Shown piece after piece: positions 16,869 through 28,650 of a stretch of 56,791 bases of DNA. Position 1 is the first letter of the stretch. Each line of letters begins with the position of its first letter. A model generated the notes under the pieces. That model searched no databases. It worked only from the letters and a program-made list of their open reading frames with translations, and had not been told where the DNA came from. The position numbers and the translations under genes are program-made. Source of the DNA: a virus (lineage: Duplodnaviria > Caudoviricetes); IMG/VR virus record IMGVR_UViG_3300030060_005193, positions 1 through 56,791 of that record. One strand, given 5' to 3'.

Positions 16869-19800
16869 ATGGCAACCTATGTAAACGATTTAAGACTTAA
16901 AGAAATAGGCACAGGTGAGTCTAGCGGTACCTGGGGAACAGAAACCAATACTAACCTAGAGCTTATAGCGGAGGCCTTTAGTTTTGGCACCGAGGCGATT
17001 ACTACCAATGCAGACACTCATACCACAACAATAGCAGACGGGTCTACTGACCCTGGACGTTCACTTTATTTAAAATATACAGGTACTCTTGATAGTGCTT
17101 GTACTATTACTATTGGACCAAACACAGTATCTAAACTTTGGTTTATAGAAAACGGAACATCTGGCTCACAAAACATTATTATTTCACAAGGCAGTGGTGC
17201 AAGCATAACCATACCCGCTGGCCATGTAAAAGCTATATATTCAGACGGAGCTGGTTCTGGTGCAGCTATGGTAGATGCCTTTACTGATTTAAACTTAGCA
17301 GGAACCACTACAGTTGACGCTTTAAATGTAAGCGGAGCATTGACAGGTTCAAGCACCATACAAGGTACAACTATTACTGCAACTACAGCATTTGTTCCAG
17401 ATGCTAGTGACGGAGCTGCTTTAGGTACAACATCATTAGAATTTAGTGATTTATTTTTAGCAGACGGTGCAGTTATAAATTTAGGTGATGACCAAGACAC
17501 CACCCTTACTCATGTTGCAGATACAGGCATACTTTTAAATAGCACAAGACAATTACAGTTTGGTGATTCTGGAACTTATATACATCAATCAGCAGATGGA
17601 GTATTAGACTTAGTATCTGATACTGAAATAGAGATTAACGCTACAACTATTGATATGAATGGTGCAGCAGATGTATCTGGTGCTTTAACTGCTGGAACTA
17701 TAAATGGCGTAGGTATATCTTCTAATATATCTAACTTTTCACAAAGTATTCTTATTAGTCAAGATGCGGGTACGGGTACTTTATCTACAGCCTCTAATAA
17801 TACAGGCTTAGGGTATGAAGTTTTTAATGTGCTTACTTCTGGTGATGATAATACTGGTCTTGGTCGTAAAGCATTTTTAAATTTAACAACTGGTACTGAT
17901 AATGTTGCTATTGGTTCTGGAGCTATGGCAGACACTACAACAGGTTCTTCTAATACTACTGTAGGAAAAAATGCTGGTTCAGGCATAACCACAGCAGATA
18001 ATAATACAGCAGTTGGAGCTAGTGCTTTAGCAGTAAACACCACAGGTGTAAAAAATACAGCCTTCGGTGCTTTTGCGTTAGATGCTAACACCACAGCTGA
18101 AGAAAACACAGCAGTTGGATATAACGCATTAACAGACAACACTACAGGACACTCTAATGTTGCTATAGGTTCAGATACTTTAGCAAATAATACTACTGCC
18201 AACCACAACACAGCAGTTGGTAGAGAAGCTATGATAACTAATACCACAGGTGCTAGTAACACAGCTTTGGGCAGACAGGCTTTACAAGCAAATACAACAG
18301 CAAGTAATAACACAGCAGTTGGTTATCAATCTTTATACGCAAACACTACAGGCACAGAAAATGTTGCAGTTGGTAAAGGTGCTATGGACGCAACAACAAC
18401 TGGTGGTTACAACACAGCCGTAGGAACAGATGCACTAGGAGCTAATACCACAGCAACTTTTAATACAGCCATAGGCAGAAACGCTTTATTAGTTAATACC
18501 ACAGGTGCTTCTAATGTTGCTGTTGGTGGTCAAGCACTAGATGCTAATACGACTGCTTCAAATAACACAGCCGTTGGAACATCTGCTCTCGGTGCAAATA
18601 CCACAGGAGCATCAAATGTAGCTGTTGGAACAGATAGTTTACAACAAAATACTACTGCAGATAACAACACAGCAGTAGGTAAAGATGCTTTAAAAACAAA
18701 CACTACAGGTGCTTCAAACACGGCAGTTGGAGCTGTAGCTTTAGCATCTCACACCACAGCAAACAGTTGTACTGCAGTTGGTTATAATGCTCTAAACGCT
18801 AATACAACTGGTGCTAACAATACCGCTATTGGAGCAGGTGCATTAGATTTAAACACTACGGGAGCAAGAAATGTAGCAGTTGGTACAGCTGCTTTAGATG
18901 CTTTAACAACAGAAAATGACAATACTGCTATTGGTTATAATGCTTTAGGTGCAGAAACAACAGGATTCAGAAATGTTGCGGTTGGTTCAAATGCAGGTGC
19001 TACACAAAATACTGGAACAAATAACACCTTAGTTGGTTATAATTCTGGTACAGCAATTACAACTGCTGATGCAAACACTATTATAGGTTCAGATGCGGGT
19101 GATGCTTTAACAACTGGAGCAGATAATGTAGCTGTAGGACAAAATTCTTTAGGTGCAGCTACAACTTCCTCAAATAATACAGCAATCGGACATGATGCTA
19201 TGACTGCTAATACTGGCGGTTTTGATGGGGTTGCCGTAGGTAGTAATTCTTTATACAGTAATACAGGTGGAGAAAGATGTACTGCTGTTGGTATGTCATC
19301 TTTATATTCAAATTCAACTGCTAGTTATAATACAGCGTTAGGTGCATACTCTGGTTATAGCACAACTACAGGAGCACAAAATGTAGCATTAGGTTATGTT
19401 GCTCACTATGCTAATACTACGGGTGTAAGTAATGTAGCCATTGGTTATGCTGCATTAGACGCAGCGAATTCTAATGATAATGTTTGTGTTGGGCATAATG
19501 CTGGAACTGGTATTACCACAGGAGGTTCAAATACTTGTATAGGTTCTGCAGCAGGAGATGCGATTCAATCAGGAGCTTCTAATATAATTATTGGTGTAAG
19601 TTCAGATTGTCCACATGACGGCACAAATTGTATAGCTTTAGGTATTAATGTTGTAAATACTACTAATGACCAATTTAGCTTCGGTAAAGCCAGTAATGTT
19701 GTTTCTAATGTATTTACCTCTAACGCTAGTTTTTCAAGAAGTTCGGATTTACATAAAAAAACTAATATAAAAGATACAGATTTAGGTTTAAATTTTATTA

Positions 19801-20102
19801 ATGAATTAAAACCTGTCACATTTAATTGGAGACCTAATAGCGAGTTTCCAACACATTACAAAGATTATTCTGAAACAGAAAATCACATGGACACAGAAAC
19901 AAATCTGTATGGAATGATTGCACAAGATGTAGAAAAAGCATTAGATAAAGTAGGACATAAAAACTTTGGAGGTTGGTCAGAGGAAGAAGATGGTTCTCAA
20001 AGACTTTCACAAGAAATGTTTATATATCCTCTTATTAATGCAGTAAAAGAACTTTCTACGCAAGTAGAAGAATTAAAAGCTAAATTAAACAAAGGAGAAT
20101 AA
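16869..20102 (+). CDS. Tail fibre with YadA-head-like repeats and C-terminal intramolecular chaperone (peptidase S74)
   Basis: Dozens of NTAVG/NVAVG 14-aa repeats; SSDLHKKTNI, GMIAQDV, LINAVKEL. Confidence 0.9.
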   Translation: MATYVNDLRLKEIGTGESSGTWGTETNTNLELIAEAFSFGTEAITTNADTHTTTIADGSTDPGRSLYLKYTGTLDSACTITIGPNTVSKLWFIENGTSGSQNIIISQGSGASITIPAGHVKAIYSDGAGSGAAMVDAFTDLNLAGTTTVDALNVSGALTGSSTIQGTTITATTAFVPDASDGAALGTTSLEFSDLFLADGAVINLGDDQDTTLTHVADTGILLNSTRQLQFGDSGTYIHQSADGVLDLVSDTEIEINATTIDMNGAADVSGALTAGTINGVGISSNISNFSQSILISQDAGTGTLSTASNNTGLGYEVFNVLTSGDDNTGLGRKAFLNLTTGTDNVAIGSGAMADTTTGSSNTTVGKNAGSGITTADNNTAVGASALAVNTTGVKNTAFGAFALDANTTAEENTAVGYNALTDNTTGHSNVAIGSDTLANNTTANHNTAVGREAMITNTTGASNTALGRQALQANTTASNNTAVGYQSLYANTTGTENVAVGKGAMDATTTGGYNTAVGTDALGANTTATFNTAIGRNALLVNTTGASNVAVGGQALDANTTASNNTAVGTSALGANTTGASNVAVGTDSLQQNTTADNNTAVGKDALKTNTTGASNTAVGAVALASHTTANSCTAVGYNALNANTTGANNTAIGAGALDLNTTGARNVAVGTAALDALTTENDNTAIGYNALGAETTGFRNVAVGSNAGATQNTGTNNTLVGYNSGTAITTADANTIIGSDAGDALTTGADNVAVGQNSLGAATTSSNNTAIGHDAMTANTGGFDGVAVGSNSLYSNTGGERCTAVGMSSLYSNSTASYNTALGAYSGYSTTTGAQNVALGYVAHYANTTGVSNVAIGYAALDAANSNDNVCVGHNAGTGITTGGSNTCIGSAAGDAIQSGASNIIIGVSSDCPHDGTNCIALGINVVNTTNDQFSFGKASNVVSNVFTSNASFSRSSDLHKKTNIKDTDLGLNFINELKPVTFNWRPNSEFPTHYKDYSETENHMDTETNLYGMIAQDVEKALDKVGHKNFGGWSEEEDGSQRLSQEMFIYPLINAVKELSTQVEELKAKLNKGE
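17790..19645 (+). repeat. In-frame degenerate 42-bp (14-aa) tandem repeat region of the tail fibre
   Basis: Repeating N(T/V)A(V/I)GxxA(L/M)xxNTT(G/A). Confidence 0.85.
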
Positions 20103-20438: not shown

Positions 20439-21146
20439 ATGAATGAAGGTGAATTTCAAATTCATACTATGCCTGCGGTATATGTGCTAGAAACACAAAT
20501 GCCACAGCAAATGATTGATGATGTTAATGATTATATGGACGAGTATAGAGAAGATAAAAATAAAGAATCATTAGCAAAAACTTTAGTAGGACAAATAGAT
20601 AAAGGAGAACAATTACTGTTAGACCACAATGATAAAAGAATGGTTGAATATAATAATTTTATCTGTCAGCTTGGTGTTGAGTATATTAATCATTTTGGTA
20701 AGTCAGGCAATACTGTTAAAGGACCCAAACAAGTTCAGATAGATGAAACTTGGTCAGTACATAGTTACGATGGTGATTACAACCCCATACATGACCACGG
20801 CACTAAAACATTAATGGGCATATCTACTACAGCCTGGACTAAAGTACCACCACAAATAGGTAATGTTAATGCACAATCACCAACTTACTCTTTATATAAC
20901 GAAAGCGGACACTCAGACGGCTGTATAGCATTTCAATACGGACAAGTATCAGTTATAGACGGTGAAAGATTAAAACCAGCTCAATCATTTGTTATGACCC
21001 CAGAAGTAGGAAAACTATTAGTGTTTCCTTCTTGGTTACAACACATGGTCTATCCCTTTAAAGGTAAAGGAGAAAGACGAACTATAGCGTCAAACCTTAA
21101 TTGTTTTGATATAATAAATGAAAATGCTAGTAGCGAGGTAAACTAA
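20439..21146 (+). CDS. 2OG-Fe(II) oxygenase (TIGR02466-like)
   Basis: GDYNPIHDH, FPSWLQHMVYP, ERRT. Confidence 0.85.
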   Translation: MNEGEFQIHTMPAVYVLETQMPQQMIDDVNDYMDEYREDKNKESLAKTLVGQIDKGEQLLLDHNDKRMVEYNNFICQLGVEYINHFGKSGNTVKGPKQVQIDETWSVHSYDGDYNPIHDHGTKTLMGISTTAWTKVPPQIGNVNAQSPTYSLYNESGHSDGCIAFQYGQVSVIDGERLKPAQSFVMTPEVGKLLVFPSWLQHMVYPFKGKGERRTIASNLNCFDIINENASSEVN

Positions 21147-21671: not shown

Positions 21672-21854
21672 ATGGCTACAGCAAAAGACGCTTTAAACAA
21701 AATAGAATCTCACGAAAGAGAGTGCAAAGCTTTATACAAAAGCATAGACAAGCGTCTTGAGGATGGCTCAAAAAGATTTGATAAATTAGAAAATATGATT
21801 TGGGCCGTATATCCTTTTATAGTAGCAAGCATAGTTTTAGCCAGGTTTATATAA
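21672..21854 (+). CDS. Coiled-coil plus C-terminal TM protein (lysis-associated type)
   Basis: HERECK...RLEDGSKRFDKLE then a hydrophobic tail. Confidence 0.6.
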   Translation: MATAKDALNKIESHERECKALYKSIDKRLEDGSKRFDKLENMIWAVYPFIVASIVLARFI

Positions 21855-22240
21855 TGAACGATACTAGCGGCAGATTTGGTGGCGACATGGATAGAAATGA
21901 AGTAGAAATGGACTTAAATAAGTTTATGGCTATGATTCAAGAAATATCAGAACTTAAAGATAAAATAAGAGATTTAGAAGCAGACGATAAAGTTAATCCT
22001 CACCAAAAATGGATTCACTTAGCAAAAGCAGTAGATTCTTGGAGAATATTCCCAAGAATGTTTTTAACAGTTTATATAGTTCTTCTTTATAAATGCACTA
22101 TATGGTTTATGGCTTTGCCAGAGCCAAGTTTTGAACAATCAGGCCTTATATCTATTGTTGTAGGCGCAGGCGCAGCTTGGTTTGGTTTATATGCAGGAAC
22201 CACAAACTCATCAAAAGGTTTTAAAGGCGAAGATACCTAA
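21854..22240 (+). CDS. Two-TM membrane protein, holin-like
   Basis: DSWRIFPR followed by two hydrophobic helices; start moved to MNDT. Confidence 0.55.
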   Translation: MNDTSGRFGGDMDRNEVEMDLNKFMAMIQEISELKDKIRDLEADDKVNPHQKWIHLAKAVDSWRIFPRMFLTVYIVLLYKCTIWFMALPEPSFEQSGLISIVVGAGAAWFGLYAGTTNSSKGFKGEDT

Positions 22241-22533
22241 TGGATGCTTTTGACCTTATAGAAAAGGTCGGATTACCAATAGCAAGCGGTTTAATAATGG
22301 GATATTTTATATTCCTAATTATGAAACAAATGATGACAGGCCTTGTCAACAAAATTAAAACAGTAGAAGGAATAGCAAAGATGCTTATTACTAGAGCATC
22401 AATAATGAATAACGATATGATTCGTATAGATACAAGCGTTTCTAGCGCTTTAAATTTAGCACCTGATTTAGATAGAATAGCCAGAGCAGAAAACTTTGTA
22501 GAAGATGGAAAGATAGACGCCAGAAGAGACTAA
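22240..22533 (+). CDS. N-terminal-TM coiled-coil protein A (curli-cassette associated)
   Basis: LIEKVG-TM-...NDMIRI; paralogous to next ORF. Confidence 0.65.
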   Translation: MDAFDLIEKVGLPIASGLIMGYFIFLIMKQMMTGLVNKIKTVEGIAKMLITRASIMNNDMIRIDTSVSSALNLAPDLDRIARAENFVEDGKIDARRD

Positions 22534-22799
22534 TGGATGTAGTGGCGTTAATTGAAAAGTTTGGTTTTGCTACTGTAATGGTAGTAGGCTTAGGATATTT
22601 TGTTTATTACGTATGGGTTACAGTTACTAAAACAGTAGAGCCTGCTGTAAGTGAAATGCAAAAAACCATTATAAGACTTACTGACCAACTTCGCCTGTTA
22701 GACCAAGATATGATACGATTACAACAGAAAGTTAATACTGTATTAGAATTAAATGAAAAGCAAAAAGACAAAAAAAGAACTTCATCAAGAAGAAGCTGA
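22533..22799 (+). CDS. N-terminal-TM coiled-coil protein B (curli-cassette associated)
   Basis: LIEKFG-TM-...QDMIRL. Confidence 0.65.
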   Translation: MDVVALIEKFGFATVMVVGLGYFVYYVWVTVTKTVEPAVSEMQKTIIRLTDQLRLLDQDMIRLQQKVNTVLELNEKQKDKKRTSSRRS

Positions 22800-23265
22800 A
22801 AAAACTTTAATAATGAGGTTGTTAGTAGTTTTTGGTATTGCTATGTTTTTTGGTATATTTGCACAAAATTTATGGTCTGACCAAATAGTACATAAATTTA
22901 AGTCGCCTAGTTTTAATGGCGTAGGAACATCATCTCATTACTTAACCATAGAAAACCAAGAACACACTCGCAAACTTACTCTTAAAGAAGAGATAAAAGC
23001 ATTACAAGATGAAATAAAAAGAGAGAAAGAAAACTCTACACTTGCAAGATTTATGCGTAACCTTGAATCAAGAGTCTATGCAGAGTTGTCCAGGCAACTG
23101 GTTAATAATCTGTTTGGAGAAACACCGCAAAGCTCAGGTACAATAACACTTGAAGGCAACACCATTGAATACACAAGCGATGGCGTAACATTAACCCTAA
23201 TTATAACCGAGCAAGATGGAACAATTACTCAAATCGTTATCCCTATTGGTACTTTTACTTTCTAG
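22753..23265 (+). CDS. csgF: Curli assembly protein CsgF-like
   Basis: Signal/TM segment then HKFKSPSFNG (CsgF FxNPxFGG-like), FMRNLESRVYAELSRQL, C-terminal GTITQIVIP; adjacent to csgG. Confidence 0.8.
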   Translation: MKSKKTKKELHQEEAEKTLIMRLLVVFGIAMFFGIFAQNLWSDQIVHKFKSPSFNGVGTSSHYLTIENQEHTRKLTLKEEIKALQDEIKREKENSTLARFMRNLESRVYAELSRQLVNNLFGETPQSSGTITLEGNTIEYTSDGVTLTLIITEQDGTITQIVIPIGTFTF

Positions 23266-24121
23266 TTGCTCTACGTTTGACCAACTTGAAGACACTTATG
23301 AACATAGGTTTTCTGCTCATAATGTTGTAAATATTCAAGATTTACAATCTACAGAACTTCAAAATGTACCAATTCCAGAAGTTAGTCCAGTTGTAGCTGT
23401 ATATCCGACAGCTTTTACCGACCAAACTGGACAAAGAAAAAGCAACAGTGAGTTTGCTTTGTTTAGTACCGCAATAACTCAACAGCCTAATGCTCTACTT
23501 ATCAGAGCTTTAAAACACGCTGGTAATGGCCAGTTTTTTAGAGTAGTAGAGCGAGTAGGACTAGATAACTTAACCAAAGAACGACAGCTTATAAGGTCTG
23601 CAAGAGAGCAAACCGCTAGTGAAGATGAAAAAAAGAAAGCACTTAGACCATTGTTGTTTGCTGGTATTTTGATAGAAGGTGCCGTAATTTCTTATGAATC
23701 TAATTTAGAAAGTGGGGGTTCTGGTGCCAGGTATCTAGGAATAGGTAAGAGCGTTCAATACAGAGAAGACAACATAACTGTAAGTTTGCGCATGGTGTCA
23801 GTAGCCACAGGAGAAGTGTTATTAGAAGTATTAAGCCAAAAAACTATATTTAGCTACGGAAAATCTGAGGATATATTTAGGTTTATTGAGGCTGGGACCG
23901 AGCTAGTGGAAGTAGAAATGGGTAATGCAAGAAATGAATCATCAACCATAGCTTTAATGAAAGCTATAGAAGGAGGTGTGCTAGAAATCGTAAATGATGG
24001 TTATGAAAAGGGTTTCTGGATTTTACAAAACAATAACCAAGGAGTAGAATTAAATGATGAAGAAATTAAAATTGATAAGCCTGATTGTGATGCTGACTGC
24101 GTTGACAACATACGCGGCTGA
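23216..24121 (+). CDS. csgG: Curli secretion channel lipoprotein CsgG
   Basis: Lipobox LSSC; VAVY..FTDQTGQRK, FSTAITQ, FRVVERVGLDNLTKERQLIRS, GARYLGIG. Confidence 0.92.
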   Translation: MEQLLKSLSLLVLLLSSCSTFDQLEDTYEHRFSAHNVVNIQDLQSTELQNVPIPEVSPVVAVYPTAFTDQTGQRKSNSEFALFSTAITQQPNALLIRALKHAGNGQFFRVVERVGLDNLTKERQLIRSAREQTASEDEKKKALRPLLFAGILIEGAVISYESNLESGGSGARYLGIGKSVQYREDNITVSLRMVSVATGEVLLEVLSQKTIFSYGKSEDIFRFIEAGTELVEVEMGNARNESSTIALMKAIEGGVLEIVNDGYEKGFWILQNNNQGVELNDEEIKIDKPDCDADCVDNIRG

Positions 24122-24788
24122 TAATGAAATATATGTAGACCAATCTGGTACTGGAGCAAATATAGACCTAGAACAACTAGGTATATCTAATATTATTGGT
24201 GGGTTAAATTCAACGGCTGGTAGTTTAAATGCCTTTGATTTAGATGGTAACAGCATGACACTTGATATAAACATGATAGGTGCAACTAACAAGTTTCTTG
24301 GTGATATATTTGCTGATAATTTTACAGGATTTTATGAATTTGATGGCGGTACAAATTCATTTACTATCCAGGTTGACCCAACAGATACTTACAGCTCAGA
24401 TGGCTCTAATCAAAATGTAGATGTTACAGGAAGCGGAAATACTTTTACTTTAAATCAAGGTACCTCAGCACTTGCATCACAGCTTGATTTAGATTGGATT
24501 ATTCAAGGCTCTAACAACACAATAACTTCAAACATAAACATAGATGGAGCTACAAATTATATGGACATAGACGGGTCCGATAATAATGTTACATATACTG
24601 GAACTGGAGTATCAGCTAGTGCGGGTGGATATTTCTACCTTGACCACACAGGAGGTTCAAGAACGTTTAATATCCAACAACTTAGCACACAAGACAATGA
24701 CTGGCTTAAAATCATATCCATTTCTGGTACTGCTGCTTCTACTGTTTGCGTCGTTCAAAACGACCAAGGTACAAGCACAAGCTGTTGA
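24054..24788 (+). CDS. Secreted curlin-like repeat protein (CsgA/CsgB-like)
   Basis: Signal peptide ending TYA; repeated beta-arc motifs (NEIYVDQSG, IDLEQLG.SN, IIQGSNN, IDGSDN). Confidence 0.65.
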   Translation: MMKKLKLISLIVMLTALTTYAADNEIYVDQSGTGANIDLEQLGISNIIGGLNSTAGSLNAFDLDGNSMTLDINMIGATNKFLGDIFADNFTGFYEFDGGTNSFTIQVDPTDTYSSDGSNQNVDVTGSGNTFTLNQGTSALASQLDLDWIIQGSNNTITSNINIDGATNYMDIDGSDNNVTYTGTGVSASAGGYFYLDHTGGSRTFNIQQLSTQDNDWLKIISISGTAASTVCVVQNDQGTSTSC

Positions 24789-25815
24789 TATTGGAGACAT
24801 ATCTGAATTAAATGGTACGGCACAAATTGTCAGAGATAAGCCATACGATGCAGATTTAAAGTTTGCGATACAAAGCAATGATGAGGCGATAACCAAAGAT
24901 GGTCGTATGGCTATTACCTTTCTTGATGATTCAACCGTAAAGCTAACTGAGCACTCGCAACTTTTAATAGATGAATACATTTATGACCCCGACCCAAGCA
25001 AATCTAAAATGGCCCTTACCTTTGGTCTTGGTACAGCAAGATTTATTACTGGTAACCTAAACCGTATAGATAAACAAAACATCACACTTAAAACACCTAC
25101 AGCCAACATAGCTATTCGTGGTACTGACTTTACTGCAACCGTTGATGAACTTGGGCGTAGTCTAATTATTCTTTTGCCAGATGCTTTTGGTTTATCTAGT
25201 GGCGAAATAGAAGTAGTTACTGCCATGGGAACTGTTTTGTTAAATAAACCTTATGAAGCTACGACAGTAAGTGTATTTGAGTCAGCTCCCACGAAACCAG
25301 TTATATTAGATTTAACTTTAGATGTTATTGATAACATGCTTATTGTTACACCACCGAAAGAAGAAGCAGTAATTGAAGAAGAGACAACAAGCACGCAAAC
25401 TGAAAGCGTGTTAGATTTTAATGACCTAGATATAGACTATTTAGCAGAAGATTATTTAAAAGATGATAGTTTAGAATTTACAGAGCTTGATATTAATTAC
25501 TTAGATGTAAACTATCTTGAAGATTTGCTAAATGTATTAGATGCTTTGGCTATAGACGAAGATGAAGACGCTTTAGCGCAAGCCACTAGCACACAAATAT
25601 CTGGCACTTTACTAGGACGGGACCCTGATACACAAATAACAACTCTTATAACAGGCAATTTGATTAGTATGCGAAGACAGGTCAATGAAAGCGTAAGGGT
25701 TGACTTAAACGGCTCTAACGCTTATACAGTAATATTAATACAAGATGGTATATCTAATGTTATTAAAATTAATGGAGGCAGCGATAGTATTATTACTATC
25801 ACTCAAAGTGATTAA
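24697..25815 (+). CDS. Periplasmic FecR-domain protein with acidic linker and curlin-like C-terminus
   Basis: Signal peptide from M at 24697; ITFLDDSTVKL, TPTANIAIRGTDF. Confidence 0.8.
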   Translation: MTGLKSYPFLVLLLLLFASFKTTKVQAQAVDIGDISELNGTAQIVRDKPYDADLKFAIQSNDEAITKDGRMAITFLDDSTVKLTEHSQLLIDEYIYDPDPSKSKMALTFGLGTARFITGNLNRIDKQNITLKTPTANIAIRGTDFTATVDELGRSLIILLPDAFGLSSGEIEVVTAMGTVLLNKPYEATTVSVFESAPTKPVILDLTLDVIDNMLIVTPPKEEAVIEEETTSTQTESVLDFNDLDIDYLAEDYLKDDSLEFTELDINYLDVNYLEDLLNVLDALAIDEDEDALAQATSTQISGTLLGRDPDTQITTLITGNLISMRRQVNESVRVDLNGSNAYTVILIQDGISNVIKINGGSDSIITITQSD

Positions 25816-27567
25816 ATGAAACGACTATTATTACCTGTGCTTATAATACTGTCTTTACCATTACTATTTCAAAGCACGCCAACAGAAATATTAAAACTCA
25901 AAACTTTTGATGCTTTAATACAAACACCAGAAGAATCAAGTAACTTTGTCATACTTAACATAACAGAAGAAGATGTAGAACGTGAAGGGGGTTGGCCCTT
26001 ACCTAGACAAAGATTAGCTGAAATACAACTGCAAATATTAGGTAAAGGTGCTGTTGGCGTTGGCTGGGTTATTAGTTTTCCACAAGCGGATAGGATGGGA
26101 GGTGATGAAGATTTTGGAAGGTCTTTAGGCTACGCTCCATCCGTAATAGCTATGTTTGAAGACGGTCAGGGTAAATATCCAGAATCAACTGGCACAGTTG
26201 TCATGGGTAATGATAATGGTGGTATAGTATCAATGGGAGTTAAGGAAAATCTTAACACTCTTAAAAATAATACATTACAAGGTTTAGCCGTTGCTCCCAC
26301 TGACTTAGACCAACTTGTCAGAAGAATACCTTTATTAGTAAAAACCCCTGAAAACGAGTGGATTCCTAGTTTTGGCACACAAATATATAAAGCTTTATTT
26401 AATGTTAAAACTTATATTATAAAAACTAATGATAATGGAATATCAGAAATATCAATAAGAGGAATACCACCTGTTAAAACAGATAGTCTTGGTCGCAAAT
26501 GGATTAGTTGGGTAGATACGCCACAAACAGATTTACAAGAAATGGCAGTAAATGGCAAGTTTGTGTTTGTTGGTGTTACTGCAAATGGCGTGATGCCACA
26601 AGTAGCTACTCCAGTTGGATTGCTAGAGCCACACAAGATTCAAGCAGCACTTGCAGAATCAATATTAATACAAGATAGTCCTTTTATACCTGATTGGGCA
26701 ATAGCGGTAGAGCTTGTTATATTTTTAGTTACAGTAAGTCTTATATGGCTTGTTTTAATACGCTTTGGGATTACATGGGGAATTATATTAGGCTTGGGAA
26801 TTATGGTTTCTACTGGCTATCTTGGATATTATCTTATAAAAACAAATTTGCTTGTTGATGTAACCTGGTCTTTAATTTCACAGTTTATTACAGGAACTAC
26901 AGCATTTTACATAAGATTTAGAGAGCAGTTTAAGTTAAGACTGCAAATTAAAAAACAGTTTGAACATTATCTTGACCCACGACAAGTTAAAAAATTACAA
27001 GATAATCCTGATTTGTTAAAACTTGGCGGCGAAAAAAAATACTGCACGTTCTTGTTCACCGACGTTAGGGGGTTTACAAATTTGTCCGAGAAGTTAGAGC
27101 CTGAACAGGTAACAGACATAATGAATAAAGTATTAACTGCACAAGTCACTTGCATACAGGCACATAAAGGAATGGTAGATAAATTTATAGGTGATTCATG
27201 TATGGCAATATTTGGAGCACCATTAGATTTAGACGAACACGAAAAAAGAGCAGTAGCTTGCGCCCAAGATATGCGTACTGCAATTACACAGCTACAAAAA
27301 GAATTGCCAGAGCCAGTAGCTATTGGTATAGGTGTAAACTCTGGCGAGGCAGTAGTGGGTAACATGGGTTCTAATACAAGGTTTGATTTTTCTGCTATTG
27401 GCGATGCAGTAAATGTTGCTGCAAGACTAGAGTCTGCAACAAAAGAAGCTGGTGTTGACATCTTAATTGGTAAAAATACTGCAAAAAATTGTAAAAATGT
27501 ATTAAAATTACCAAAACCTATTAAAGTAAAAGGTAAAACGAAGGCTTTACAAATATGGACAGTTTAA
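25816..27567 (+). CDS. CHASE2-domain membrane adenylate/guanylate cyclase (class III)
   Basis: GGWPLPR and DQLVRRIPL (CHASE2), three TMs, FTDVRGFT, DKFIGD, SAIGDAVNVAARLE. Confidence 0.92.
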   Translation: MKRLLLPVLIILSLPLLFQSTPTEILKLKTFDALIQTPEESSNFVILNITEEDVEREGGWPLPRQRLAEIQLQILGKGAVGVGWVISFPQADRMGGDEDFGRSLGYAPSVIAMFEDGQGKYPESTGTVVMGNDNGGIVSMGVKENLNTLKNNTLQGLAVAPTDLDQLVRRIPLLVKTPENEWIPSFGTQIYKALFNVKTYIIKTNDNGISEISIRGIPPVKTDSLGRKWISWVDTPQTDLQEMAVNGKFVFVGVTANGVMPQVATPVGLLEPHKIQAALAESILIQDSPFIPDWAIAVELVIFLVTVSLIWLVLIRFGITWGIILGLGIMVSTGYLGYYLIKTNLLVDVTWSLISQFITGTTAFYIRFREQFKLRLQIKKQFEHYLDPRQVKKLQDNPDLLKLGGEKKYCTFLFTDVRGFTNLSEKLEPEQVTDIMNKVLTAQVTCIQAHKGMVDKFIGDSCMAIFGAPLDLDEHEKRAVACAQDMRTAITQLQKELPEPVAIGIGVNSGEAVVGNMGSNTRFDFSAIGDAVNVAARLESATKEAGVDILIGKNTAKNCKNVLKLPKPIKVKGKTKALQIWTV

Positions 27568-27568
27568 A

Positions 27569-27967
27569 ATGATGCAACAAATATTTATAGGCATAATTTT
27601 AGTTTTAGGATTGGGTTGTTATTGGCTGTACCAAGAAAACTCAACTCTTAAAGCTAACAACCAAGCTTTAGAAGGTGCTATAGCTACACAGGAAGCAACA
27701 ATTAAATCAATTCAAGCTGACTTTGAGCTACAAACGAAACAGATGAATGAACTATCAATTAAAAGCCAAGAGGCACAAAGAGAACTTAGTAGATACACAC
27801 AATTTATACAAAACTATGAATTATCTACAAAAATACTGGCAGACCCAGTAGAAATGCAAAGGAAGATAAATAATGGTACAAAACATATCATGGAAAACAT
27901 TGAGGAAATTAGCAGTGATGTTGATGGCCTTGATGATGGTTTACAGTTGCAGCCTGATACCGACTAG
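27569..27967 (+). CDS. Putative inner-membrane spanin (Rz-like)
   Basis: N-terminal TM plus long coiled coil; overlapped by a lipoprotein gene. Confidence 0.6.
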   Translation: MMQQIFIGIILVLGLGCYWLYQENSTLKANNQALEGAIATQEATIKSIQADFELQTKQMNELSIKSQEAQRELSRYTQFIQNYELSTKILADPVEMQRKINNGTKHIMENIEEISSDVDGLDDGLQLQPDTD

Positions 27968-28262
27968 GCAAATAGAAGTATCAGCAAAACCCATAGATAG
28001 GAAAATAGTACAACCTATTATGCCTAGAGAAATAGACTTACAAGAACCTTTATGGATTGTGGTAACTCCTGAAAACTATGAACAACAACTAGCCTTTATA
28101 GAAGAACAAGAAGGAGAGTTAGTATTTCTTGCTATGACAATTCCTGACTACGAAGTTATGGCATATAACATGCAAGAAATTAAAAGGTACATAACTGAAC
28201 TTAAAGATGTGGTGGTGTATTATAGAAAAGTAACAACAACACAGGAGAAAGAAAATGAGTAA
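27873..28262 (+). CDS. Putative outer-membrane spanin lipoprotein (Rz1-like); true start probably 27900-27918
   Basis: Lipobox-like VYSC, Pro-rich segment, overlap with the i-spanin 3' end. Confidence 0.6.
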   Translation: MVQNISWKTLRKLAVMLMALMMVYSCSLIPTRQIEVSAKPIDRKIVQPIMPREIDLQEPLWIVVTPENYEQQLAFIEEQEGELVFLAMTIPDYEVMAYNMQEIKRYITELKDVVVYYRKVTTTQEKENE

Positions 28263-28650
28263 TTCACCAGAGGCATTTGTATATAAATGTAAACTTAAGT
28301 CTGTAACTGACGGCGATACAGTAAGACTACAAACTATTGATTTAGGCTTTTCTGTTCAATTACATAATAAGGCTGTCAGAATAAATGGTATTGACACACC
28401 AGAAAGCCGTATAAATATAAAAAAATACCCAGAACGAACAAAAGAAAAAGAACTAGGCTTATTAGCTAAACAAAAATTGAAAGAATGGCTGGTAGGTGAT
28501 ATAACACTAAAATCTTATGGGACAGATAAATATGGAAGAGTTTTAGGTGACATATTCTGCGATAAAGGAAATATTGCTGAATTGCTTGAAAAAGAGAATC
28601 TTGCCGTACCTTATTTCGGTGGGACAAAAACAAAAAAATGGGGAGAATAA
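28255..28650 (+). CDS. Thermonuclease (SNase-like)
   Basis: DGDT, RINGIDTPE, DKYGRVLG. Confidence 0.88.
   Translation: MSNSPEAFVYKCKLKSVTDGDTVRLQTIDLGFSVQLHNKAVRINGIDTPESRINIKKYPERTKEKELGLLAKQKLKEWLVGDITLKSYGTDKYGRVLGDIFCDKGNIAELLEKENLAVPYFGGTKTKKWGE

Follow-up and report, generated by a model that had tools for sequence, protein, structure and literature searches.

A 56,791-base virus record (IMG/VR record IMGVR_UViG_3300030060_005193; hereafter the window, by which we mean the whole record, with an estimated completeness of 100%) carries a block of seven genes at 22240-27567 that combines parts of a curli-type (type VIII) secretion system (T8SS) with a FecR-domain protein and a CHASE2-sensor nucleotide cyclase. 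We lean towards reading this block, hereafter the cassette, as two coupled arms that are inherited as one, an arm for T8SS export and an arm that signals from the periplasm to cyclic AMP (cAMP). The seven open reading frames (ORFs) all lie on the + strand, abut or overlap one another and encode, in order, two small transmembrane (TM) proteins (TMa and TMb), a CsgF-like protein, a CsgG-like channel, a curlin-like protein, a FecR-fold protein and a class III cyclase. This content had been described in an earlier reading of the window (the original prediction), and our ORF calls, Pfam matches and hydrophobic segments bear it out. Throughout, Pfam calls were judged against the curated cut-offs, and the scan covered the seven cassette proteins and three of their neighbours. 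The original prediction had gone on to infer that the phage may install an amyloid-like structure on the infected cell and convert the state of that structure into cAMP, a suggestion that we take up, in the same conditional form, once the parts have been described.

Judged from its sequence, the window phage is a complete HTVC023P-type pelagiphage of podovirus type, in line with the podovirus-like character proposed earlier. We base this assignment on the large terminase (TerL), which is 58-62% identical to those of 023Pt_psg01, HTVC027P and HTVC023P. The presence of the cassette in HTVC023P-type pelagiphages and in pelagimyophages is already known, and our finding is not new in that respect because Wittmers et al. 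(2022, mSystems, PMC9599517) describe the cassette in the same phage lineage, in nine HTVC023P-type podovirus genomes as well as in myophages. The gene list in that paper runs ‘HK’ (histidine kinase; sometimes two), CsgF, CsgG, CsgA/B, FecR, often a second CsgA/B, and adenylate cyclase. The window shares the lineage, the genes and their order, with a pair of small TM genes, a single curlin-like gene and the cyclase, and nothing essential differs. Myophage versions of the cassette are also described by Zaragoza-Solas et al. (2020, PMC7029224), and Buchholz et al. (2022, PMC9004378) proposed from structure models and synteny that CsgGF in the myophage Melnitz is a possible lysis-timing pore. The main text of the latter paper does not mention the cyclase or FecR, and the term CHASE2 does not occur in the main text of PMC9599517; beyond these three papers, we found no later literature on the phage cassette. 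What we add concerns the nature of the parts, namely a CHASE2 sensor on the cyclase, a FecR protein devoid of anti-sigma parts, small TM proteins that do not qualify as histidine kinases and a structural link between the presumed substrate and CsgA, together with two findings in bacteria, a FecR-CHASE2 pair and a chromosomal counterpart of the fused block.

The last and largest gene of the cassette (25816..27567, + strand) encodes a class III nucleotide cyclase with a CHASE2 sensor; we predict that it is an adenylate cyclase. Residues 12-306 match the CHASE2 domain (PF05226, E 8e-27), residues 408-578 match Guanylate_cyc (E 2.3e-21), and the protein matches phrog_35576 (E 3.9e-113). TM-like windows at residues 1-22, 296-314 and 323-341 predict that an N-terminal TM segment leads into a CHASE2 domain in the periplasm, after which come a TM bundle and a catalytic domain in the cytoplasm. 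The closest relatives of solved structure are adenylate/guanylate cyclase domains, 6fht (E 5e-35) and 2w01 (E 2e-30). Residues D416, K456, D460 and R537 were invariant in all 19 aligned CHASE2 cyclases, and N533 is present in the window protein; we take D416 and D460 to bind metal, K456 to specify the purine, and N533 and R537 to act on the transition state. K456 aligns with a Lys in 6fht, the adenylate-cyclase form, and with a Glu in 2w01. Lysine at the equivalent position goes with adenine, and from this residue pattern we infer that the product is cAMP. No TPR or phosphodiesterase family was found in the seven cassette proteins or the three neighbours scanned.

The FecR gene (24697..25815, + strand, in an ORF that is open from 24586) ends at a stop codon, 25815, that abuts the start of the cyclase gene at 25816. 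The FecR domain is recognized by Pfam (PF04773, E 3.9e-9, 37.3 bits against a cut-off of 24), and translation most likely starts at the ATG at 24697, which gives the protein a signal peptide, rather than at 24586. From this start the protein would consist of a signal peptide, the FecR domain, an acidic linker rich in D, E and L that is modelled with low confidence, and a small C-terminal beta unit ending in I-T-I-T-Q-S-D. In all 12 cassette-type FecR proteins that we aligned, a signal-peptide-like segment runs straight into the FecR domain, and a G-G-x-x-x-I-T-I-T-Q motif is conserved at the C-terminus (window 25770-25815). We modelled the protein with AlphaFold2 (AF2), obtaining a predicted local distance difference test score (pLDDT) of 54.6 overall and of ~70-80 in the N-domain (residues 35-191). 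The N-domain matches the C-terminal cell-surface signalling domain of PupR (6ovm_R; Z 15.4, root-mean-square deviation (rmsd) 2.7, 136 residues aligned) and also 4m0h_A (Z 14.2), the next structure scoring Z 4.8.

We rejected an iron-regulator or anti-sigma reading of this protein. Neither it nor any of the 11 relatives aligned with it has a cytoplasmic anti-sigma domain or a membrane anchor, and Sigma70_r2 and the TonB_dep_Rec_b-barrel family had no matches anywhere in the complete phage genome. Because the anti-sigma domain, an extracytoplasmic function (ECF) sigma factor and a TonB-dependent receptor are all lacking, the iron-regulator reading is unsupported, and the protein is better described as a FecR-fold periplasmic protein than as a FecR-type iron regulator. 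The C-terminal motif resembles the last repeat of several curlin-like proteins. An hhalign comparison of the C-terminal unit with the curlin-like profile gave a probability of 14% (E 0.0019, 42 columns), which is too weak for us to accept the unit as a curlin repeat, and we keep this resemblance as a lead only.

The export arm begins with the CsgF-like protein (22753..23265, + strand). It matches Pfam PF10614 (E 2.3e-14, 54.1 bits against a cut-off of 25.8), which identifies it as the CsgF of a T8SS, and phrog_35372 (E 1.6e-42); a sequence search of the PDB found no relative (best E 0.99, a myosin light chain). Its true start is most likely the ATG at 22813 and not 22753, as the shorter form begins with a signal-peptide-like hydrophobic N-terminus. 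Thus, all seven ORFs of the original prediction stand, with likelier starts for two of them, CsgF at 22813 and FecR at 24697. The CsgG-like protein (23216..24121, + strand) is a predicted outer-membrane lipoprotein channel, with a lipobox-like L-S-S-C near its N-terminus and clear matches to Pfam PF03783 (E 6.7e-46) and phrog_20175 (E 2.3e-65). Its residues 46-275 align to the structures of E. coli CsgG (E 3.5e-49), which identifies the protein as a T8SS channel. In this alignment, the FSTA motif is kept, and the residues immediately before it, presumably the constriction loop of the channel, differ.

As had been claimed for csgE and csgC, neither is recognizable in the window: CsgE (PF10627) and CsgC (PF10610) had no matches in the complete genome under conditions in which the E. 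coli controls were positive, and CsgD was not part of this search. Wittmers et al. (PMC9599517) report that CsgD is lacking in the viral module and that CsgE and CsgC are also lacking in alphaproteobacterial T8SS modules.

The presumed substrate of the channel is the product of the ORF at 24054..24788 (+ strand), a predicted beta-solenoid with a signal-peptide-like N-terminus. This ORF had no Pfam family above cut-off and no PHROG; the sole Curlin_rpt (PF07012) signal in the genome lies inside it, at 24120-24182, and scores 15 bits against a cut-off of 20.7. An AF2 model built on a 16-sequence alignment is all-beta (pLDDT 79.3, predicted template modelling score 0.77). When this model was compared by VIA-align with 48,161 chains, the top structure was a CsgA, that of Pontibacter korlensis (8c50_A; Z 17.4, 191 aligned, rmsd 9.0, 21% identity), followed by SufD-type and other generic solenoids (Z 15-17, 4-7% identity). 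On the strength of the model, we predict a CsgA-type beta-solenoid fold. The curlin-like character given to this protein in the original prediction thus stands in part, for the solenoid, the signal peptide and the CsgA structure at the top, and falls short at the Curlin_rpt cut-off; a product that was neither solenoidal nor secreted, which would have spoken against the earlier idea, is not what the model and the N-terminus indicate. Homologues of the protein are numerous (3062 at E<=1e-3). The 120 that were listed are at least 80% identical to it, apart from one at 70%, and none carries a Pfam domain. More distant copies on contigs of metagenome-assembled genomes (MAGs) have repeated Q-x-G-x-x-N motifs. 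A profile of the 16 curlin-like homologues searched against PDB sequences did not find CsgA (best E 0.015, unrelated).

The cassette opens with two paralogous small proteins, TMa (97 amino acids, 22240..22533, + strand; A-type) and TMb (88 amino acids, 22533..22799, + strand; B-type), which both match phrog_18771 (E 2.6e-23 and 4.8e-25, respectively) and have one hydrophobic segment each. In TMa this segment is N-terminal and is followed by a helical tail, with K and R richer on the C-terminal flank of the TM window. The A/B pair is kept between the window podovirus and the myophages HTVC008M and Melnitz, whose A-type proteins lie at the same position and are 45-47% identical to TMa. Proteins at this place carry the published ‘HK’ label, which we ruled out: proteins of the TMa/TMb type are only 88-115 amino acids long, and the label is unsupported because none of the six that we scanned matches an HK-related Pfam family at E<=5. 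TMa itself matched no Pfam family at all at that threshold, including HisKA, HAMP and HATPase_c, and neither protein matched a defence model. Their Atlas neighbours are virus-only clusters, and the nearest Pfam-bearing clusters, YvrJ (0.87) and Holin_BhlA (0.85), fall below the level at which the tool is reliable and were discarded.

To describe how the cassette is distributed in viruses, we scanned viral contigs with the FecR protein, obtained at least 584 confirmed matches, and analysed the best 80 (82-97% identity), all of which are closely related to the window. In all 72 of these loci that leave at least 1.8 kb of room, FecR is followed by the cyclase; the remaining eight do not extend that far. 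Of the 48 loci with 2 kb or more of room, 40 have an endolysin no further than 2.5 kb downstream of the cyclase, and 17 have a recognizable Rz directly 3′ of it, just as spanins are placed in the window. In the podovirus lineage, then, the block sits in or beside the lysis genes. Upstream of CsgF, where 48 loci extend for at least 700 bases, a single small TM gene is present in 35 and a pair in 13, and no locus is without one; in the 35 single-gene loci, TMa is kept and TMb is missing. We also considered whether the block might be a bacterial chimera and rejected this, as the original prediction would require, because the 80 independent viral contigs, as far as they extend, have flanks that match those of the window. 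Read-derived Logan contigs (200-870 bases) from four runs in three studies cover 30 of 30 bins of the stretch, and one among the pieces listed (26981-27601) bridges a junction of the cassette; no RNA data set was listed for the stretch, which bears neither way on its expression.

Outside these near relatives, tblastn with the cyclase recovered HTVC008M and four Melnitz records at 32-33% identity over 96% of its length. In both myophages the cassette is complete and agrees with the window in gene order and strand. Two genes of ~90-115 amino acids come first, then CsgF, CsgG, a first curlin-like gene, FecR, another curlin-like gene and, last, the cyclase, in agreement with what the original prediction had said of csgF and csgG in large T4-like marine myophages. 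They differ from the window in the extra curlin-like gene between FecR and the cyclase, where the window has a single curlin-like gene in all, and in sequence, as their cyclase and FecR proteins are only 32-37% identical to those of the window. They differ in location as well, since their cassette lies between ssDNA-binding/replication genes and baseplate/tape-measure genes and not among lysis genes. In HTVC023P, HTVC027P and 023Pt_psg01, we found no cassette in a 25-kb stretch around TerL and no tblastn match to the cyclase. According to Wittmers et al. (PMC9599517), viral curli proteins occur at 65/65 GOV2.0 stations, where they make up ~0.1% of assembled viral proteins, metatranscriptomes hold transcripts of all module genes, the viral genes lie next to alphaproteobacterial ones in phylogenies, and the module has been transferred between phage families.

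We then scanned bacterial genomes, one per species, with the FecR alignment, kept 80 of 392 confirmed matches, and used hidden Markov models (HMMs) derived from the phage proteins to annotate these loci. Ten of the 80 loci, on nine contigs, contain the cassette, whole or in part. Two of the ten, L086 and L088, come from opposite ends of a single 60,834-base contig that is labelled as a Neomarinimicrobiota MAG; the cassette is split between them, and the gene order is that of the podoviruses. This contig is probably a circular pelagiphage genome that was binned into a bacterial MAG. Among five further loci (L091-L095), which are cassette-bearing MAG contigs, proteins that flank the cassette in HTVC008M and Melnitz match only L092, by way of a dioxygenase, and one of the seven flanking ORFs of L094 has a PHROG. 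In L092 and L094, TMa/TMb genes stand downstream of the cyclase on the opposite strand instead of upstream of CsgF.

Two other contigs, from two Caulobacteraceae MAGs (L089, 82 kb, and L090, 32 kb), carry a six-gene block of CsgF, CsgG, two curlin-like proteins, FecR and a CHASE2 cyclase, confirmed with Pfam, at L089:7155-13093 and L090:7139-13093. The flanks are cellular in both, with methylmalonyl-CoA mutase, acyl-CoA dehydrogenase, amidohydrolase and a TetR-like gene in L089 and with glycosyltransferases, a peptidase and a TonB-dependent receptor in L090. The block is 87% identical between the two contigs at the nucleotide level. Because it is all that they have in common, and their cellular flanks differ, the fused block is present in cells as a unit that is discrete and apparently mobile; its GC content is 51%, against 55-57% in the flanks of L089. 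Compared with the window, the Caulobacteraceae block has the same gene order and the same C-terminal motif in FecR, two curlin-like genes before FecR, a FecR protein 37-38% identical to that of the window, and a higher GC content than the ~36% of the window. The HMMs built from the phage proteins did not detect TMa or TMb in either contig, which makes these two contigs the exception among all the cassette copies that we could judge, every other one having one or two small TM genes. These two contigs therefore qualify the abstract of PMC9599517, which states that bacterial T8SS operons do not include FecR and the cyclase. Taken together, the order shared with HTVC008M and Melnitz, the adjacency of FecR and the cyclase in 72 of 72 viral loci, and the Caulobacteraceae block support the view that the cassette is inherited as a unit; the FecR and cyclase genes are conserved next to csgFG, as the original prediction requires, in the viral loci, both myophages and the two bacterial contigs.

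The signalling arm also occurs by itself. Among the other 70 bacterial FecR loci, a CHASE2 cyclase lies nearby in 16, and CsgG or CsgF in none, so that FecR and the CHASE2 cyclase form a bacterial pair that exists without CsgG/F. We scanned two loci of this kind with Pfam, L165 (Methylocapsa acidiphila) and L144; in both, the cyclase and FecR are separated by a TPR protein, and the order over L165:5921-10810 and L144:5982-11179 is CHASE2 cyclase, TPR protein (weakly like the N-terminal TPR of Slam) and FecR-domain protein. In a third locus (L130:9788-15018), a FecR-CHASE2 cyclase pair is followed by an MscS channel with a domain that binds cyclic nucleotide monophosphates (cNMPs). Finally, directly after the CHASE2 cyclase of the Caulobacteraceae contig L090 (L090:13536-14129), we found a gene for a 197-amino-acid PycTM-type Pycsar effector (PF18967 E 8.8e-25; PADLOC E 9.6e-18). 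It is the only PycTM among all fetched loci and the window, and L089 has its TetR-like gene at that position. Together, L090 and L130 are a hint, from two cases, that sensor arms of this kind can be wired to membrane effectors.

These observations place the cassette between several known systems. Campylobacterota have CHASE2 cyclases clustered with FecR-domain, TPR and phosphodiesterase genes (PMC9239204), and in Sinorhizobium (S.) meliloti, CHASE2 cyclases (CyaD1/CyaD2/CyaK) raise cAMP on sensing a plant protein via the outer-membrane protein NsrA (PMC13001267), a signal that runs from an outer-membrane protein to cAMP. These accounts, together with the bacterial neighbourhoods above, support the statement in the original prediction that CHASE2 cyclases work with FecR-domain or outer-membrane partners. 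The phage arm shares with these systems its CHASE2 class III cyclase and, with Campylobacterota, the FecR-domain gene alongside. It differs from them in having no TPR protein or phosphodiesterase among the cassette proteins, in having CsgG/CsgF with a secreted solenoid as its outer-membrane component, and in the additional acidic linker and C-terminal unit of its FecR protein. With the FecIRA and PupIRB systems it shares the fold of the periplasmic FecR-type domain, as seen in the PupR match above; in contrast to those systems, the phage FecR begins with a signal peptide and has neither anti-sigma domain nor anchor, and the phage has neither ECF sigma factor nor TonB-dependent receptor. The likeness to the curli system of E. 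coli (csgBAC/csgDEFG) lies in the lipoprotein channel CsgG, in CsgF and in a secreted subunit modelled as a beta-solenoid. Unlike that system, the phage lacks CsgE and CsgC, its subunit scores below the Curlin_rpt cut-off, its CsgG differs before the FSTA motif, and its cassette adds the FecR-CHASE2 cyclase arm and the small TM proteins. With respect to the labels of Wittmers et al., the ‘HK’ matches no histidine-kinase model, the sensor of the cyclase is CHASE2, and FecR is without the parts of an iron or anti-sigma regulator.

In the two-arm explanation that we favour, the lipoprotein CsgG and CsgF would build a curli-type outer-membrane channel in the infected cell, and this channel would export the CsgA-like beta-solenoid protein that carries a signal peptide. 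The soluble, periplasmic FecR-fold protein would talk to the CHASE2 membrane cyclase, and this relay from periplasm to cytoplasm would make cAMP, which may in turn act on the cell. CsgG/CsgF and the curlin-like protein would then occupy the slot that many bacteria fill with a TPR protein or an outer-membrane partner. Because the sensor of the cyclase is predicted to face the periplasm, the signal would run inward, and the cyclase arm is therefore more likely to be an output of the state of the envelope than an upstream regulator of curli. A complex prediction for the periplasmic part of CHASE2 (residues 23-295) with the FecR N-domain (residues 30-215), run without controls, scored 0.00 against a mark of 0.32, which speaks neither for nor against contact between the two.

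Several points weigh against this explanation. Any physical link between the two arms is conjectural, as is any contact of FecR with CHASE2 or with the curlin-like protein, and the FecR model is of low confidence outside its N-domain. The nucleotide specificity of the cyclase rests on sequence only. No cNMP-binding domain is encoded by the phage and the output path is therefore missing from it, so that any target would be a host protein or one that we did not recognize. The cyclase also matches the PycC models of Pycsar (2e-28), as expected of any class III cyclase; since this match is not diagnostic and the window has no PycTM-like ORF at E<=1, we rejected a Pycsar reading of the window. On the export side, the curlin-like protein does not belong to the curlin-repeat family at the sequence level, its match to CsgA has the high rmsd given above, with unrelated solenoids scoring nearly as well, and a Foldseek search of its model against the PDB returned nothing at E<=0.001 (best E 0.38; the weak rows were beta-helix proteins). 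Melnitz-infected cultures showed no clumping, and a lysis role was argued for instead (PMC9004378). Lastly, the chromosomal version is rare, the cassette-type FecR being present in 2 of 201 sampled Caulobacteraceae genomes.

Other explanations emphasize one arm or one place of the cassette. The published one (PMC9599517; PMC7029224) is that the curli-type amyloid fibres aggregate Pelagibacter cells (‘sibling capture’) or shield them from phages, with FecR, the cyclase and the ‘HK’ as upstream regulators. CsgG, CsgF and the CsgA-like solenoid are indeed present and conserved, and the ubiquity of the module at the GOV2.0 stations and its transcripts in metatranscriptomes (PMC9599517) are in favour of this account. 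We nevertheless regard this account as unlikely, for it needs information to pass from a cytoplasmic regulator to the T8SS, whereas the sensor of the cyclase would be periplasmic and its signal inward. Among six ‘HK’ proteins scanned, none gave a hit to an HK model at E<=5, and FecR is without an anti-sigma domain. The phage itself encodes neither an ECF sigma factor nor a TonB-dependent receptor, neither a cNMP-binding regulator nor a recognizable CsgE; CsgD, which we did not search for, is reported lacking (PMC9599517). The absence of clumping with Melnitz (PMC9004378) speaks against fibres that aggregate cells. The location of the block in podoviruses, in or next to the lysis genes, with the endolysin and spanin counts given above and with small TM proteins flanking it, favours instead the proposal argued from structure models and synteny in PMC9004378, that CsgG, alone or together with CsgF, has been repurposed as a gated pore of the outer membrane or as a device like a pinholin that helps to time progeny release; on this reading, the cyclase arm would set the timing. 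Against it, the block lies between replication and baseplate genes in HTVC008M and Melnitz and among metabolic or glycosyltransferase genes in the two bacterial contigs; the boundary between tail-fibre and lysis modules is, moreover, a place where accessory genes usually insert. An outer-membrane pore would be unable to depolarize the inner membrane, and a pore has no need of a conserved secreted solenoid and a cyclase. We consider a role in lysis timing distinctly improbable.

An inward-facing logic is what would be expected of an envelope alarm, in which a surface event, for example contact of the solenoid with a second phage or a neighbouring cell, raises a cyclic nucleotide that acts on a membrane effector or on the infection programme, with superinfection exclusion or an analogue of lysis inhibition as the outcome. 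The PycTM-type effector directly after the cyclase in L090, the MscS channel with a cNMP-binding domain after the FecR-CHASE2 pair in L130, and the small TM proteins in every copy judged except the two Caulobacteraceae contigs all accord with such an alarm. Against it, PycTM occurs in a single fetched locus and not in the window, a TetR-like gene takes its place in L089, TMa and TMb match no defence model, and nothing points to a ligand for the sensor; we rate its chances as poor. A bolder version, to which we attach similarly long odds, is that the cassette is a phage-borne trans-envelope sensor, in which a curlin-like filament standing on CsgG/CsgF acts as an antenna whose state, for instance when another phage or cell makes contact, is read by FecR and relayed to the CHASE2 cyclase, and the cyclic nucleotide acts on TMa/TMb or on host factors to exclude superinfection or to retime lysis; we hold this doubtful for antenna and outcome jointly. 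The least probable account, in our estimation a very remote one, was raised in the discussion of PMC9599517 and invokes import, with an ungated CsgG pore admitting cofactors or iron compounds and FecR reporting iron. It draws on the absence of CsgE and the presence of a FecR-family domain, and has against it the missing anti-sigma module in FecR and the absence from the phage of a FecI-type sigma factor and a TonB-dependent transducer. It also leaves the conserved secreted solenoid unexplained, and FecR-domain proteins next to CHASE2 cyclases form a signalling pair that is general in bacteria and for which no connection with iron has been stated. Having weighed these accounts, we return to the two coupled arms, T8SS export and periplasm-to-cAMP signalling, as the explanation with a somewhat better than even claim.

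The surroundings of the cassette in the window follow the order tail fibre, 2-oxoglutarate- and Fe(II)-dependent (2OG-Fe(II)) oxygenase, several small TM proteins and cassette, with Rz-like and Rz1-like spanins, a nuclease of the staphylococcal (SNase) type, a Phage_lysozyme endolysin (E 7e-47) and TerL on its 3′ side. The tail-fibre-like protein (window 16869-20102) is 1077 amino acids long and has short repeats of the type N-T-A-(V/I)-G across most of its middle. The 2OG-Fe(II) oxygenase gene (20439-21146) lies ~1.1 kb 5′ of the cassette. In HTVC008M, a phytanoyl-CoA dioxygenase-like gene (L001:1225-1845) lies directly 5′ of the cassette, and a homologue of it is present in the cassette locus of L092 (L092:10722-11279); an oxygenase or dioxygenase gene may thus be a recurrent neighbour of the cassette. 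Also upstream, at 21672-21854, is a gene for a 60-amino-acid protein with a C-terminal TM segment, which is a holin candidate. Several related podovirus loci have a homologue of this gene between the cyclase and the spanins, and since the holin candidate is placed differently there, the position of the cassette relative to the lysis genes varies among relatives. The SNase-type gene (28255-28650; Pfam SNase E 3.6e-10) lies between the spanins and the endolysin in the window, and upstream of the small TM gene instead in most related loci.

SAR11 bacteria are among the most abundant in the ocean, and we know of no curli genes of their own. Whatever the block does on infected cells, whether it builds fibres, opens a pore or passes a signal from the envelope to cAMP, it would do so on a very large scale, and it could bear on aggregation, carbon export, competition between phages and the timing of lysis. 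If the cassette were indeed a trans-envelope sensor, it would be a surface-triggered relative of the cyclic-nucleotide defence systems, a comparison to which the Pycsar-type effector of L090 lends itself. In any case, our analysis sharpens the annotation of a ‘regulated curli operon’ into the hypothesis of two coupled arms, one that may export a curlin-like solenoid and one that may report on the envelope through cAMP, and this hypothesis could be tested in E. coli and in the HTVC008M and Melnitz systems.

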